From Escherichia coli (lineage in GTDB: Bacteria; Pseudomonadota; Gammaproteobacteria; Enterobacterales; Enterobacteriaceae), in assembly GCF_003018115.1 (NCBI RefSeq), contig NZ_CP027457.1: a DNA stretch of 64,000 bases, one strand, 5' to 3'. Below are positions 495 through 30,132 of this stretch, one piece after another (position 1 is the first letter of the stretch; each line of letters opens with the position of its first letter). The position numbers and the translations under genes are program-made. The notes under the pieces were generated by a model. That model was not told where the DNA came from. It did not search any database and saw only the letters and a list, made by a program, of their open reading frames with translations.

Positions 495-3170
495 TTAAGC
501 GGATTTTTTCGCTTTTTTCTCAGCTTTAGCCGGAGCGGCTTCTTTTTTCGCTGCAGTTTCGCCTTCTACATAATCACGACCGTAGTAGGTATCCAGCAGA
601 ATCTGTTTCAGCTCGGAGATCAGCGGGTAACGCGGGTTAGCGCCAGTGCACTGGTCATCGAATGCATCTTCAGACAGTTTATCCACGTTCGCCAGGAAGT
701 CTGCTTCCTGAACGCCAGCTTCACGGATAGATTTCGGAATACCCAGTTCAGCCTTCAGCGTTTCCAGCCATGCCAGCAGTTTCTCGATCTTAGCAGCAGT
801 ACGGTCGCCCGGTGCGCTCAGACCCAGGTGGTCGGCAATTTCAGCATAACGACGGCGAGCCTGCGGACGGTCATACTGGCTGAATGCAGTCTGCTTGGTC
901 GGGTTGTCGTTCGCATTGTAGCGAATAACGTTACAAATCAGCAGGGCGTTTGCCAGACCGTGCGGAATATGGAACTGGGAACCCAGTTTGTGCGCCATTG
1001 AGTGACATACACCCAGGAAGGCGTTCGCAAACGCGATACCCGCGATAGTCGCTGCACTGTGAACACGTTCACGCGCTACCGGATTTTTAGACCCTTCGTG
1101 GTAGGACGCTGGCAGATATTCTTTCAGCAGTTTCAGTGCCTGCAGAGCCTGACCATCAGAGAACTCAGATGCCAGTACAGAAACATAAGCTTCCATGGCG
1201 TGAGTTACTGCGTCCAGACCACCGAAAGCACACAGGGACTTCGGCATGTCCATAACCAGGTTGGCGTCGACAATCGCCATATCCGGGGTCAGCGCATAGT
1301 CCGCCAGCGGGTATTTCTGACCAGTAGCGTCGTCAGTTACAACCGCAAACGGAGTGACTTCAGAACCTGTACCAGAAGTGGTGGTGACAGCAATCATTTT
1401 CGCTTTCACGCCCATTTTCGGGAACTTGTAGATACGTTTACGGATATCCATAAAGCGCAGCGCCAGCTCTTCGAAGTGAGTTTCCGGATGTTCGTACATA
1501 ACCCACATGATCTTCGCGGCGTCCATCGGGGAACCACCACCCAGCGCGATAATCACGTCTGGTTTGAAGGAGTTTGCCAGTTCTGCACCTTTACGAACGA
1601 TGCTCAGGGTCGGATCCGCTTCTACTTCGAAGAAGACTTCAGTTTCAACGCCTGCTGCTTTCAGTACGGAAGTGATCTGATCAGCATAACCATTGTTGAA
1701 CAGGAAGCGGTCAGTCACGATGAGCGCACGTTTGTGGCCATCAGTAATCACTTCATCCAGCGCGATTGGCAGGGAGCCACGGCGGAAGTAGATAGATTTC
1801 GGAAGTTTGTGCCACAACATGTTTTCAGCTCGCTTAGCAACGGTTTTCTTGTTGATCAGGTGTTTCGGACCAACGTTTTCAGAGATGGAGTTACCACCCC
1901 AGGAACCACAACCCAGAGTCAGGGAAGGTGCGAGTTTGAAGTTATACAGGTCACCGATACCACCCTGAGAAGCCGGGGTGTTAATCAGGATACGAGCCGT
2001 TTTCATTTTCTGACCGAAGTAAGAAACGCGAGCCGGTTGGTTATCCTGGTCAGTGTACAGGCAAGAGGTATGACCGATACCACCCATAGCAACCAGTTTC
2101 TCTGCTTTTTCTACCGCGTCTTCGAAATCTTTAGCGCGGTACATTGCCAGAGTCGGGGACAGTTTTTCATGTGCGAACGGTTCGCTTTCATCAACAACGG
2201 TCACTTCACCGATCAGAATCTTGGTGTTTTCTGGTACAGAGAAGCCTGCCAGTTCAGCAATTTTATAGGCTGGCTGACCAACGATAGCCGCGTTCAGCGC
2301 ACCGTTTTTCAGGATAACATCCTGAACAGCTTTCAGCTCTTTACCCTGCAACAGATAGCCGCCGTGGGTTGCGAAACGTTCACGTACTGCGTCATAAACA
2401 GAGTCAACAACAACAACAGACTGTTCAGAAGCACAGATTACGCCGTTGTCGAAGGTTTTGGACATCAGTACAGATGCAACTGCACGTTTGATATCAGCAG
2501 TTTCATCGATAACAACCGGAGTGTTACCCGCGCCTACGCCGATAGCTGGTTTACCGGAGCTGTATGCGGCTTTAACCATGCCCGGACCACCAGTCGCGAG
2601 GATCAGGTTGATGTCTGGGTGGTGCATCAGTGCGTTAGACAGTTCAACAGAAGGTTGATCGATCCAGCCGATCAGATCTTTCGGAGCACCGGCAGCGATA
2701 GCAGCCTGCAGAACGATATCAGCCGCTTTGTTGGTGGCATCTTTTGCACGCGGGTGCGGGGAGAAGATAATGGCGTTACGGGTCTTCAGGCTGATCAGCG
2801 ATTTGAAGATAGCAGTTGAAGTCGGGTTAGTGGTCGGAACGATACCGCAAATAATACCGATTGGTTCAGCGATAGTGATGGTACCAAAAGTGTCGTCTTC
2901 AGACAGAACACCACAGGTTTTTTCATCTTTATAGGCGTTGTAGATATATTCAGAAGCAAAGTGGTTTTTGATCACTTTATCTTCGACGATACCCATGCCG
3001 GATTCGGCAACGGCCATTTTCGCGAGTGGGATTCGAGCATCTGCAGCAGCCAGAGCGGCGGCGCGGAAGATTTTGTCTACTTGCTCTTGAGTGAAACTGG
3101 CATATTCACGCTGGGCTTTTTTTACACGCTCTACGAGTGCGTTAAGTTCAGCGACATTAGTAACAGCCAT
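495..3170 (-). CDS. adhE: bifunctional acetaldehyde-CoA/alcohol dehydrogenase
   Basis: 891-aa ORF, full-length AdhE sequence ([20 protein letters not shown]...). Confidence 0.97.
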
Positions 3171-3646
3171 AATGCTCTCCTGATAATGTTAAACTTTTTT
3201 AGTAAATCATCTGCTCGAATACGAGAGTATAGTCAGTGCGGTGATGATTTGCTTAACCGATGAAAATCAAAAGCTTACTCGCGCTCACACTCACTGTGAT
3301 TTACTAAAAGAGTTTAAACATTAGAGTTATTATCTCTAATGCGTCACTTCCAGGTGGCGTAAGCAAGATTACTCACTTCTGGGTACTGATTACGTGATCC
3401 AAATCAAATTTTTGCAAAGCTGACACCTTTCAGCATCGCTTTTCGCCATTATAGCTAACAGTTAATAAATTGTAGTATGATTTGATGGCTACATTAGCAT
3501 GTTTTGTACAACTAGATAACAATAACGAATGATAGCAATTTTAAGTAGTTAGGAGGTGAAAAATGCTGTCAAAAGGCGTATTGTCAGCGCGTCTTTTCAA
3601 CCTTATTTATGGCTAACATTATCCGGCTTTTGCTTCGGAGCTAACC

Positions 3647-24423: not shown

Positions 24424-24831
24424 TTATTGATGTTTGTTACGTTTGCGAGCTTCTAGTAGCTCGGTGAATAGGCGATTAAAATTCTCAACGCGGGCACGGA
24501 GTTCGCTGATCTGTGCTTGCTGCTCTGATTTTGGAAGTGCGCGATACAATCGCAACATCTCCGACTCATCTTCCGATAAGTCTAAGGCGCTGTTGAGTGC
24601 AACTGGTGGATCTGGTGTTTTATCCTCGTCACCAAACAGTATCCAAGTTGGTGAACATTGCAATACCTCAGCCAGGCGATGCAAATTTTGCCCGCGCGGG
24701 GCTGTATGGTCGCTTTCCCATAGTGAAATTGATGAGCCAGATACACCAGCAGCTTTGCTTAAATCGTTTTGACTTAAACCAACCTGTTTGCGTCTTTCTC
24801 TAATTCGTTGACCTAAAGTTTTCTCGTTCAT
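24424..24831 (-). CDS. phage repressor, XRE-family HTH (RacR/DicA-like; no S24 peptidase domain)
   Basis: N-terminal HTH LGQRIRERRKQVGLSQNDLSKAAGVSGSSISLWE; divergent from the Cro-like gene. Confidence 0.85.
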   Translation of the reverse strand: MNEKTLGQRIRERRKQVGLSQNDLSKAAGVSGSSISLWESDHTAPRGQNLHRLAEVLQCSPTWILFGDEDKTPDPPVALNSALDLSEDESEMLRLYRALPKSEQQAQISELRARVENFNRLFTELLEARKRNKHQ

Positions 24832-24908
24832 ATTTAGATATCTTAATAACCCTTGACTTGAGATTCCTTGAGTGATTACTATTGAGAAAACTCAAGCCTG
24901 GAGGGGTG
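24832..24908. promoter_or_regulatory. divergent immunity promoter/operator region
   Basis: Repeated CTTGAG half-sites and palindrome ttgagaaaactcaa between divergent repressor and Cro-like genes; TTGACT -35-like hexamer. Confidence 0.4.
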
Positions 24909-25136
24909 ATGTTTAAATCAGACGTAATTAATTTTTATGGGACGAAAGCCAAAGTAGCGAAAGCTGCTGGTGTTGATCCATCTGCTGTTTCTCAATGGGG
25001 GAAACTGGTCCCTGAAGGTCGCGCGATGCGCCTGCAAGAGGCATCCGGCGGGGAGCTTCAGTATGACCCCAAAGTTTATGACGAATATCGTAAGACGAAG
25101 CGGGCGGGGCGGTTGAACAATGAAAATCACCCTTGA
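24909..25136 (+). CDS. Cro-like / YdaS-family DNA-binding protein
   Basis: 75 aa from ATG with a GGAGGGG Shine-Dalgarno; HTH GTKAKVAKAAGVDPSAVSQW. Confidence 0.75.
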   Translation: MFKSDVINFYGTKAKVAKAAGVDPSAVSQWGKLVPEGRAMRLQEASGGELQYDPKVYDEYRKTKRAGRLNNENHP

Positions 25137-25641
25137 GCAGGCACGCGATGCCCTGGATGCCTGGATAAGCCGACCAGGAATGACGCAGGAGCAGGCGACG
25201 ATATTAATTACTGAAGCCTTCTGGGCTCTACAGGAACGCCCGAACATCGATGTTCAGCGTGTCACGCTTGATGATGGCGGGGTTGATCAGCGTGCGCTTG
25301 GCGTTAACCGGGTGAAGATATTCGAACGCTGGAAGGCTATCGACACCAGGGATAAGCGTGAAAAATTCACGGCGCTGATTCCGGCAATTATGGAGGCTAT
25401 CCGGATTAGTGATTTCAGGTTGTACCGCGAAATTACTGACGGAAAAAGCATTACGTACATGATTGCCGGGTTAAACAAAGAATATGGCGATGTGGTGGAG
25501 TCCGGGCTGCTTTTTGCAGATCCAGCTGTTGTGGAACGTGAGACAGACGAGCTTATAGAAAAAGCAATCGCTTTCAAGCGTGCCTATCGTCACCAGTACC
25601 AACAAAAAGCCGGATGGAATTATGAGCCTTCTTTTTGCTGA
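25120..25641 (+). CDS. YdaT-like / CII-like phage regulatory protein
   Basis: 173-aa ORF overlapping the Cro-like gene; position matches ydaT in Rac-type immunity regions. Confidence 0.65.
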   Translation: MKITLEQARDALDAWISRPGMTQEQATILITEAFWALQERPNIDVQRVTLDDGGVDQRALGVNRVKIFERWKAIDTRDKREKFTALIPAIMEAIRISDFRLYREITDGKSITYMIAGLNKEYGDVVESGLLFADPAVVERETDELIEKAIAFKRAYRHQYQQKAGWNYEPSFC

Positions 25642-26599
25642 ACGCCCGCTGGTTATAAACACACAGCTGGCGATGAAGATTGGTTTAAACGAAGCCATTG
25701 TGTTGCAGCAACTGCATTACTGGTTGAGGGATACCAGTTCCGGCATGGAATGTGATGGCGTTCGCTGGATTTACAACACAACGGAACAATGGCTGGAACA
25801 GTTTCCGTTCTGGTCAGAGTCAACGTTAAAGCGTGCGTTTGCAAGTCTGAAAGCGCTGGGGCTTTTGCGTAGCGAAAAGCTCAATAAATCGAAGCGTGAT
25901 ATGACTAATTTTTACACAATTAACTACGATAGCGCGCTTTTAGATGATGGCAAAGTGAACGAATCCATCGGGTCAAAATGCGCCACTCCATCAGGTCAAA
26001 ATGACACGATGGAAGAGGTCAAAATGAAACGTTCCATTGGTTCAAAACGGCCCAATGTCATCAGGTCAAAATGGCCCGATGATCCTACAGAGAATACAAC
26101 AGAGAATACAACAGAGAATACAACAGAGAATAAAAAACTCTCTTGTCCGGACGCTTCGCAACCGGACGAGTTGACGGCTGAACAGGCGTTTTTAACCCGC
26201 CATCCTGATGCTGTTGTGTTCAGCGTGAAAAAACGCCAGTGGGGAACCCGGGAGGATTTGACATGTGCGCAGTGGATCTGGGGGCGGGTTGTAAACCTGT
26301 ACGAACAGGCTGCCAGTGACGATGGTGAGATCACGCGACCGAAAGAGCCCAACTGGACGGCGTGGGCCAATGACGTGCGCACAATGCGGATGCTGGATGG
26401 AAGAAGTCACAGACAAATTTGCGAAATGTTCAGCCGGGCACAACGGGATCCGTTCTGGATAAAAAACATCAAGAGCCCGGAAAAACTCCGTGAGAAATGG
26501 GATGAACTGGTTATTCGACTGTGGCGTGGTCCCGCGCAGCGTTGCGTGAATCATATTTCTGAACCGGATACCGAAATTCCGCCGGGTTTCAGGGGGTAG
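25622..26599 (+). CDS. replication initiation protein (lambda O-like, replisome organiser)
   Basis: Position upstream of the DnaC-like loader; contains an internal iteron array and a TENTTENTTENTTEN linker encoded by it. Confidence 0.75.
   Translation: MSLLFAERPLVINTQLAMKIGLNEAIVLQQLHYWLRDTSSGMECDGVRWIYNTTEQWLEQFPFWSESTLKRAFASLKALGLLRSEKLNKSKRDMTNFYTINYDSALLDDGKVNESIGSKCATPSGQNDTMEEVKMKRSIGSKRPNVIRSKWPDDPTENTTENTTENTTENKKLSCPDASQPDELTAEQAFLTRHPDAVVFSVKKRQWGTREDLTCAQWIWGRVVNLYEQAASDDGEITRPKEPNWTAWANDVRTMRMLDGRSHRQICEMFSRAQRDPFWIKNIKSPEKLREKWDELVIRLWRGPAQRCVNHISEPDTEIPPGFRG
25965..26133. repeat. iteron cluster / candidate replication origin inside the O-like gene
   Basis: Five copies of (A/G)GGTCAAAATG-like motif at ~25-30 bp spacing, then four tandem 12-bp acagagaataca units. 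Confidence 0.55.
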
Positions 26600-26605
26600 C
26601 GCATC

Positions 26606-27346
26606 ATGAAAAACATTACGTCAGGTGGTGTTCTGGCAAGAGTCAGCAGATTTGTGCCGCAGGATGCAATCCCTCCGTACCGTACGGTGACGGAGTGGCG
26701 GGAATGGCAGCTTGCTGAAGGGCGTAAGCGAAGCGAGGAGGTTAATCGTCTGAATCATCAGACGCGGGTTGAAAAAATCATTAACCGCTCCGGTATCCAG
26801 CCGCTTCACCGGAAGTGTACGTTCGGTAACTACCGGGTGCAGAACGATGGTCAGCGCCATGCCCTGAGTCAGGCGAAATCCATTGCGGCAGAGCTGGAAG
26901 GCGGCTGTACGAATTTTGTGTTCAGTGGCCGGCCTAGCACAGGAAAAAACCACCTGGCGGCGGCTATTGGCAACCACCTTCTGGCGAAAGGTCGCAGTGT
27001 GATTGTGATAACAGTGGCGGATGTGATGCTGGCGTTACATGGCAGCTACGACAACAAAAACTCGGGCGAAAAATTTTTGCAGGGATTGTGTGGCGTTGGC
27101 CTGCTGGTACTGGATGAAATTGGCATGCAACGGGATACGCGTAATGAGCAGGTCACGCTGAATCAGATTGTTGACCGCAGAACGGCATCGTTACTCAGTG
27201 TGGGGATGCTGACAAATCTTAACCATGCAGCGATGAATACACTTCTCGGCGAGCGGGTGATGGACCGCATGTCCATGAACGGTGGTCGCTGGGTGACGTT
27301 TAACTGGGAGAGCTGGCGTCCGAACGTCAGCCAGCACAGGAACTGA
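26606..27346 (+). CDS. DnaC-like helicase loader (IstB-like AAA+ ATPase)
   Basis: Walker [16 protein letters not shown], Walker B LLVLDEIG. Confidence 0.85.
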
Positions 27347-29556: not shown

Positions 29557-29712
29557 ATGAAGCAGCAAAAGGCGATGTTAATCGCCCTGATTGTCATCTG
29601 TTTAACCGTCATAGTGACGGCACTGGTAACGAGGAAAGACCTCTGCGAGGTACGAATCCGAACCGGCCAGACGGAGGTCGCTGTCTTCACAGCTTACGAA
29701 CCTGAGGAGTAA
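29557..29712 (+). CDS. hokD: Hok/Gef family type I toxin (HokD/RelF-like)
   Basis: 51-aa product MKQQKAMLIALIVICLTVIVTALVTRKDLCEVRIRTGQTEVAVFTAYEPEE; strong AAGGAG Shine-Dalgarno; the same frame is open 19 codons upstream (Mok-like leader). Confidence 0.88.
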   Translation: MKQQKAMLIALIVICLTVIVTALVTRKDLCEVRIRTGQTEVAVFTAYEPEE

Positions 29713-29814: not shown

Positions 29815-30132
29815 TCAGGATATTACCTGGATCCCGTTTTTCTCGACAACTGAAAGAAGCCGAAGAGCTGCACCTCCCGGGCGTTTCACTCCTCGTTCCC
29901 AGTCTGATATCAGGTTTTTACTGACGTTGAGGTATCTGGCAAAAACAGGTTGAGACAGATGCTCTCGTTCTCGCAGTGCACGGATCCTTTCTGGAGACAT
30001 TACCGGCGCAGGCTGAAGACAAGTTTCATCGAATTCGCGCATAGTTTGTTTTGTGATTGCACCGATATCATGGAGTGACTCCATCATTTCATGTACAGAT
30101 GCAAGTGCATCACTGCGGTAATTTTTACTCAT
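29815..30132 (-). CDS. HigA-like antitoxin (XRE-family HTH)
   Basis: 105 aa, HTH LSQPVFARYLNVSKNLISDWERG; 8-nt overlap with the upstream toxin gene (toxin-first arrangement). Confidence 0.8.
   Translation of the reverse strand: MSKNYRSDALASVHEMMESLHDIGAITKQTMREFDETCLQPAPVMSPERIRALREREHLSQPVFARYLNVSKNLISDWERGVKRPGGAALRLLSVVEKNGIQVIS

Follow-up and report, generated by a model that had tools for sequence, protein, structure and literature searches.

A probable replication origin within the O-like initiator gene of a lambdoid prophage of Escherichia coli

Replication origins of the lambda type have been known since the 1970s, and because the kind is established the locus described here is filed under it. 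Iterons and an AT-rich tract in the middle of the O gene make up the canonical ori-lambda (PMC7466680). In the lambda genome (NC_001416), four iterons are located at 39034, 39054, 39078 and 39101 inside O, with spacings of 20, 24 and 23, and are followed by an AT-rich tract. The named lambda-type comparators are the six-iteron origins of Stx phages 933W and P27. Extra iterons lengthen the O proteins of Stx phages, and lambda-type O proteins are described as dimers (PMC7466680). In Stx phages, Stx production is controlled by replication of the phage DNA (PMC7466680), which gives origin maps of non-lambda replication modules practical value. The two 'Eru' papers on non-lambda Stx-phage replication regions make no mention of origins, iterons or a loader of the type found here. 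Literature searches that included the replisome-organiser/iteron and mEp460 literature revealed no experiment on any member of the initiator family described below, and full-text queries with the sequences of the iterons and the 12-mers retrieved unrelated primers only.

The window analysed here is a stretch of 64,000 nucleotides of E. coli DNA. Positions 25943-26134, embedded in the linker-coding part of an O-like initiator gene, are very likely (probability about 0.85) the vegetative replication origin of a lambdoid prophage, a reading made by analogy with lambda. As in ori-lambda, the candidate origin occupies the central part of the initiator gene, flanked by the coding regions of the putative DNA-binding and loader-recruiting domains, and its repeats resemble those of lambda/Stx-type origins, in which 4-6 iterons with dyad symmetry and a TCAAAA(C/T)GA-like centre follow each other at intervals of about 20-24 bp. 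A lambda-like layout is ordinary for such phages, and the finding is routine as far as the prophage is concerned. The central region is found in 1754 of 5426 complete E. coli genomes (about a third), many Shiga-toxin-producing strains included, so that a probable origin is now located for the replication module of that share of genomes.

The replication module and its initiator protein

The genes and protein regions of the module are as follows.

24424-24831 (-): cI-like HTH gene, upstream of the initiator gene
24853-24882 (+): pR-like, sigma-70-like promoter candidate (consensus scan, 9/12)
24909-25136 (+): P22_Cro-like gene, upstream of the initiator gene
25120-25641: YdaT-family gene in the cII position, upstream of the initiator gene
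25622-26599 (+): O-like replication initiator gene, 325 aa, with the putative origin inside it (ORF list; PHROG 391)
25622-25942 (+): N-terminal domain of the initiator, predicted winged helix, presumed iteron-binding module
26066-26515 (+): stretch aligning with the C-terminal half of lambda O, aa 149-298 (BLASTP, 38% identity over 150 aa, E 7e-25)
26528-26596 (+): C-terminal tail with the DnaT-tail pattern (..SEPDTEIPPGFRG) (NCBIfam DnaT model positions 158-179; PDB chains 6aep, 2ru8, 9zbt)
26606-27346 (+): DnaC-like helicase loader gene (NCBIfam PRK12377; PHROG 50; Pfam IstB_IS21)

The promoter candidate lies between the divergent cI-like and P22_Cro-like genes, a position that fits a pR-like promoter; it is a bare consensus match, and the number of such sites is not above chance. 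If active, it would drive the cro-like, YdaT-like, O-like and DnaC-like genes through the origin. A DnaC-like partner had been proposed for the initiator, and Pfam, PHROG and NCBIfam all identified a DnaC-like loader gene directly after the initiator gene, which is accompanied downstream by a DUF1627 gene. The loader scored 467 bits against PRK12377 (cutoff 389) and 296 bits against the DnaC equivalog model, which is under the cutoff of 357 (both NCBIfam), and is a DnaC/IstB-type AAA+ protein, not a lambda P-type loader. Approximately 3 kb downstream of the replication module there is a Hok/Gef-family toxin ORF (29560-29712, +; Pfam E 1e-23), with an HTH_3 gene on the opposite strand (29815-30132). 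Identical copies of the initiator gene are labelled 'hypothetical protein' or 'phage O protein family' in RefSeq, mostly the former.

The proposal that the initiator is O-like was upheld by a match to PHROG 391 ('replication initiation O-like', E 1e-90) spanning residues 17-325, and by homology of its C-domain to that of lambda O. This conserved lambda-O-like domain covers approximately aa 205-298 and starts after the repeat array. The N-terminal half gave no BLASTP match to lambda O, and the ORF matched no Pfam family at E <= 0.01, including Phage_rep_O (PF04492), RepA_N, DnaB_2, DnaD and Phage_rep_org_N. The initiator also matches PHROG families labelled 'DnaD-like helicase loader' (1e-37 to 1e-25). 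In a structure model the N-domain ends at about residue 105, and its fold is predicted to be a DnaD/RepA_N-like, initiator-type winged helix. Since the N-domain has no Pfam Phage_rep_O match, it is its co-inheritance with the iterons, together with this fold, that suggests that it binds them. Judged by sequence, the protein appears to belong to an initiator family that combines a lambda-type origin with a DNA-binding domain other than the Pfam lambda O domain. Classification by domain as an SPP1 G38P-type replisome organiser was rejected, there being no Pfam Phage_rep_org_N match.

The last 22-23 residues of the initiator (..VNHISEPDTEIPPGFRG) match the tail of the host primosomal protein DnaT, and a PDB sequence search with the whole initiator returned the DnaT tail only. 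That the initiator is itself DnaT (primosomal protein I) was rejected, as the match is confined to the tail and the DnaT equivalog model gave 17.2 bits against a cutoff of 201; the resemblance of the tail does account for the 'primosomal protein I' label found in some records. The tail-coding DNA (about the last 60 nt of the gene) is approximately 96% common to otherwise unrelated 'phage replisome organizer' genes. The DnaT-like tail was noted at 26528-26596 in the window and at 2542-3507 in loci L001-L003. In phages mEp460, HannyBb and PhiR42_1 this O-like gene is present with no loader gene after it, and their O proteins all end in the DnaT tail. Such 'O-only' phages make up 34 of 314 lambdoid phages, and their replication is not understood (2025 paper, PMC12315714). 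It could be speculated that in loader-less phages the DnaT-like tail recruits host DnaB-DnaC.

The iterons and the 12-nt repeat array

The original prediction had placed five spaced motifs and a set of tandem 12-mers at 25965-26133, inside the initiator ORF. These coordinates are correct, and both arrays lie within 25622-26599 (+). Together they (25966-26134) encode residues 115-171 of the 325-aa initiator, between its N- and C-domains. The DNA features of the region are as follows.

25884-25931: AT-rich patch upstream of the iterons (stability z 2.75; GC 0.30-0.33)
25943-25965: possible degenerate sixth iteron, 'iteron 0' (repeat search; the same position in Klebsiella phages reads GAGGTCAAAGTGACC)
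25966-25988, 25989-26011, 26012-26034, 26035-26057 and 26059-26081: five 23-nt iterons (repeat search; spacing 23, 23, 23, 24)
26087-26134: four copies of a 12-nt repeat, unit ACAGAGAATACA (Tandem Repeats Finder: period 12, 3.8 copies, 100% matches, 26087-26132)

The iteron consensus, CATCAGGTCA-AAA-TGACCCGATG, is an imperfect palindrome that is self-complementary at 18 of 23 positions, with 5-8 of 10 arm positions complementary in each unit. All exact copies of its 10-mer core, GGTCAAAATG, in the 64-kb window lie within the iteron array; there are four, compared with 0.21 +/- 0.43 expected by shuffling (0 of 100 shuffles reached 4). As the fifth core (at 26040) reads GTTCAAAACG, the description of the motifs as 'GGTCAAAATG-type' was accurate. 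Iteron 0 is far better kept in the Klebsiella relatives than in the window.

The iteron cores fall at codon positions 2, 1, 3, 2 and 2, so that all three phases are used and the same core is translated as GSK, GQN, VKM, GSK and RSK. In a comparison with a Klebsiella phage, DNA identity was 83.6% in the iteron block, with third codon positions 79.5% identical (31/39); the corresponding values for the N-domain were 69.5% and 44% (50/114), and the difference in third-codon identity between the two regions is significant (Fisher p 1.6e-4). Given that the cores occupy every codon phase, that the units are all imperfect palindromes and that third-codon identity is raised, the iterons are DNA-level elements, and the sequence evidence points to repeats that act at the DNA level and not at the peptide level.

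The 12-mers had been described as four perfect copies. The array is present, but three copies are perfect and the fourth is perfect for 10 of 12 bases, ending in AAA where the others end in ACA (base 11). The repeats are in frame and translate to TENTTENTTENTTEN, as had been proposed, and the length of the linker is indeed set by their copy number. Among alleles at least 95% identical, arrays of 3, 4, 5, 6 or 9 copies were found and the flanks were always identical. Three copies are present in about 50 of the 60 best hits and four in six of the 60, the window's own allele among them; five copies occur in three records, six in locus L006 and nine in locus L015. The commoner mEp460-type allele (about 1600 records, approximately 88% identical) has three degenerate 12-mer copies and a fixed length.

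It had been suggested that an AT-rich unwinding element be looked for just downstream of the repeats. An AT-rich candidate exists, but it is the 12-mer array itself, since the following 40 nt are 62% G+C. The GC content of the array is 0.30-0.35, and its AT skew of +0.54 to +0.71 reflects an A-skewed sense strand. In a nearest-neighbour scan, the least stable 48-nt stretch inside the ORF was 26090-26137 (dG -54.5, z 2.8), which is essentially equal to the AT-rich tract of lambda (dG -53.9, z 2.87). The lambda tract is more AT-rich than the 12-mers, which are 33% G+C, and this counts against the lambda-like reading. No single-strand structure was predicted for the array by ssDNA folding. The patch at 25884-25931, upstream of the iterons, is nearly as unstable as the 12-mers, which counts against the latter as sole unwinding candidate, and it contains one DnaA-box-like 9-mer, TTTTACACA, at 25910-25918, about 50 nt before the first iteron; the DnaA-box pattern occurs at chance-level frequency in the 64-kb window, with no enrichment. 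Apart from the iterons, the 12-mers and this patch, repeat and stability scans of the replication module found no further repeat array or comparable AT-rich element.

The origin signature among relatives and alternative readings

Homologues of the N-domain were found in 143 phage records, including phages of Vibrio, Staphylococcus, Bacillus, Klebsiella, Pseudomonas, Lactobacillus, Flavobacterium, Erwinia and Listeria, and in many metagenomic contigs. A survey was carried out on 71 non-redundant loci carrying the N-domain, with 64 control stretches. Between 1 and 5 palindromic iterons were detected per locus (mostly 2-4), with a spacing of 22-23 nt and an almost invariant CAAAATG centre. The half-sites vary by lineage yet remain complementary (GGTCA, GGATC, GTATC, TGCTC, TGTTC, GGGCC, TGCCC, GTGCC and others); positions -3 and -2 are complementary in 85% and 81%, with GC, TA, AT and CG pairs all used. 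N-domain identity is 0.71 within a half-site class versus 0.59 otherwise, a difference that is confounded by phylogeny and is consistent with co-variation only. The iterons are followed by a conserved (A/T)ATACCAGAGACTAC and then by further CNGAGA-core units, with the consensus CAGAGAnTAC and a spacing of 11-12 nt. Such repeats are seen, for example, in Staphylococcus phage 96 ORF015, Bacillus TP21-L gp4, Pseudomonas phage 8P gp039 and Erwinia PEp14 gp53. Vibrio phage SSP002, with 37% N-domain identity, has no CAGAGA cluster, which shows that not every remote homologue carries the element. Given the conservation seen in the survey, the window's 12-mer represents an enlarged version of a conserved origin element.

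Comparison of close relatives indicates that the module is exchanged as a unit of N-domain and repeats. Klebsiella phages carry the N-domain, the iterons and a degenerate form of the 12-mer array in front of a C-terminal domain that is unrelated, and DNA similarity to the window stops where the 12-mer array ends. In a prophage of E. coli O145 RM8988-C1 (L009), an identical combination of lambda-O-like C-domain, tail and DnaC-like gene goes with another N-domain and other repeats (1528-1624 and 1661-1694). These are 15-nt TTGACCCGTCAA-type units that make up a 33-nt inverted repeat, and two CC(C/T)GATCCGTCAG copies 21 nt apart; they presumably constitute another origin specificity. Absence of the repeats from homologous initiator genes would have spoken against an origin, but they were present in all relatives examined, down to approximately 50% N-domain identity. 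In E. coli 700462 (L008, 1542-2438), an in-frame 69-bp deletion has removed exactly three iterons and left two. Recombination between iterons 1 and 4 is the probable source of the deletion, which may have made the origin defective.

Two loci depart from the usual gene arrangement. In a Brevibacillus borstelensis prophage (L099, 2501-4778) the N-domain is a separate 141-aa gene, followed by DnaD-like (DnaB_2) and IstB/DnaI-like loader genes, with no iteron array detected after the N-domain gene; from its sequence this appears to be a split version of the module. In Logan contig DRR287732_2067 (L101, 2149-2330), a distant relative, the CAGAGA repeats are read in another frame (QRLQRVQQRLLQR) and a stop codon closes the ORF shortly afterwards, while the TE.T frame continues without a stop as far as the following called gene; this represents either an assembly frameshift or a real split gene.

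Of the readings that compete with an origin made up of both arrays, the one that survives best accepts the iterons as initiator sites but regards the 12-mers as a slippage-prone microsatellite coding for a flexible Thr/Glu/Asn linker, with unwinding taking place elsewhere, for example at 25884-25931. The copy number varies freely between 3 and 9 among near-identical alleles, which suggests tolerance, the upstream patch with its DnaA-box-like 9-mer is about as unstable, and the motif is read Thr-Glu-x-Thr in most loci, so that a peptide constraint is possible. We nevertheless consider this reading unlikely, since CNGAGA-core repeats directly follow the iterons in 67 of the 71 unique loci compared with 1 of the 64 control stretches, and span phages of Firmicutes and Proteobacteria with unrelated C-domains. 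The first unit is usually read T-R-D-Y and the later ones T-E-x-T, so that a single protein uses the motif in two frames. Fixation is also seen at codons that the search pattern does not cover: TAC is used in 29 of 30 cases versus 155 of 373 in the N-domain, and GAC in 29 of 34 versus 87 of 240 (the Glu/Arg part of this test is circular, as GAG and AGA lie inside the search pattern, and only TAC and GAC count). In addition, the array occupies the position of the lambda AT-rich tract.

If the 12-mers are instead part of the origin, as we prefer, the CAGAGAnTAC repeats might be a sequence-specific element and more than AT-rich filler, shared across phyla and bound on one strand by the N-domain or by the opened complex, whose copy number (2-4, up to 9 in E. 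coli alleles, with 11-12-nt spacing) tunes firing. This we put forward only tentatively, as rather less than an even bet. No description of the element was found in the literature that could be searched, and the conserved repeat is the one feature of the locus that may be new.

It is also conceivable, though quite improbable, that the iterons, by binding the initiator or some other regulator, serve chiefly in autoregulation, in copy control or in the exclusion of related phages, and that the true origin lies outside the gene. Plasmid iterons are known to mediate autorepression and handcuffing as well. Inhibition of related phages by cloned lambda origin regions (PMC3349717) fits such a role. 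However, no further repeat array and no AT-rich element of similar kind was seen in the replication module, iterons paired with a weak duplex between two initiator domains match the proven lambda origin, and the module is conserved as a single unit. Still less probable is that the palindromic units are extruded as ssDNA hairpins, serving as a primosome-assembly or priming signal, and are not duplex sites for dimers. The compensatory changes that keep the arms complementary across the family would also be needed by a hairpin, but the arms are only 5-6 nt long and imperfect in three of the five units, the ssDNA fold of 25940-26140 (top strand) is not clearly better than that of shuffled sequences (z -1.74; 14 of 200 shuffles as good), and dyad iterons bound by dimers are the established solution in lambda (PMC7466680). 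A purely protein-level repeat, a repetitive linker with no DNA function, would suit a poorly conserved, probably disordered inter-domain stretch with in-frame 12-mers, but is highly improbable, being already contradicted by the codon-phase and synonymous-site data: a 23-nt period cannot make a peptide repeat because the 10-mer is read as GSK, GQN and VKM, conservation at synonymous sites is far higher in the iterons than elsewhere in the gene, and the palindromic half-sites co-vary.

With the origin reading retained, the survey provides a recognisable signature for a large initiator family not covered by Pfam: a predicted winged-helix N-domain, NNNNN-CAAAATG-NNNNN iterons every 23 bp, and CAGAGAnTAC repeats. 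With this signature, putative origins could be annotated in phages whose hosts are Gram-positive as well as in those whose hosts are Gram-negative. The half-sites, which co-vary, form a natural data set for a protein-DNA recognition code, and the conserved 12-mer is a candidate for a new unwinding or recognition element.

Proposed mechanism and comparison with known origins

Repeat anatomy, DNA-level constraint, co-inheritance with the N-domain and the homologies of the proteins are observed at this locus. We infer that the initiator binds the iterons, that the duplex opens at the 12-mers, that the helicase is recruited and that the segment acts as an origin, and a lambda-like sequence of events can be proposed for these steps. 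Dimers of the initiator would bind through their N-terminal winged helices to five or six palindromic iterons that recur every 23 bp, or about 2.2 helical turns, and would assemble into an O-some-like nucleoprotein complex. This complex would destabilise the A-rich 12-mers next to it, where the duplex of the gene is least stable, and the lambda-O-like C-domain with its DnaT-like tail would bring in host DnaB bound to the phage DnaC-like loader, while rightward transcription from the pR-like promoter would pass through the origin.

Several systems other than lambda share single features with the locus. The N-domain in the window is predicted to have the type of fold found in the RepA_N plasmid initiators of Gram-positive bacteria (pSK41/pTZ2162 RepA, PDB 4pta) and in the N-domains of DnaD and DnaB(Bsu), but sequence identity is 12-16% and there is no Pfam RepA_N or DnaD match; moreover, the RepA_N/DnaD systems are plasmid or chromosomal, whereas the C-domain in the window is lambda-O-like. 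Genes for replisome organisers of the SPP1 G38P type harbour an origin, with repeats bound by their own product and an AT-rich stretch after them, but the type of repeat differs from that in the window. The 12-mers may be analogous to the 13-mers of oriC, the DnaA-trios and the DnaD recognition element of B. subtilis oriC, all of which are short repeats spaced by about one helical turn inside the region to be opened, beside the duplex sites of the initiator. CAGAGAnTAC is unrelated to the motifs of these elements. For DnaD, strand-specific recognition has been described (PMC10201434).

The closest likeness is to lambda. The original prediction that the region is organised as ori-lambda agrees with the annotation of NC_001416, in which the iterons are likewise located between two protein domains and followed by an AT-rich, A-skewed stretch of low stability. 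In lambda, a palindrome to the right of the AT-rich tract (39162-39194; L010, 1163-1195) contains GTCAGAGAATTC..CCTCTGAC and shares CAGAGAAT with the 12-mer of the window and GAGAATTCTG with locus L104, which may be due to chance or may be a remnant of a common origin element. Lambda and the window have in common an A-rich tract of low stability on the promoter-distal side of the iterons and homologous initiator C-terminal domains (E 7e-25), and in lambda-type/Stx phage O proteins and the window initiator alike extra repeats lengthen the protein. They differ in that the N-domain of lambda O (Pfam Phage_rep_O) has no detectable sequence similarity to that of the window initiator, which in turn carries a DnaT-like tail that distinguishes it from lambda O. 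The loader is P in lambda and a DnaC paralogue in the window, and the weak-duplex tract is a simple AT run in lambda, whereas in the family to which the window belongs it is a sequence-conserved repeat of 11-12 nt.
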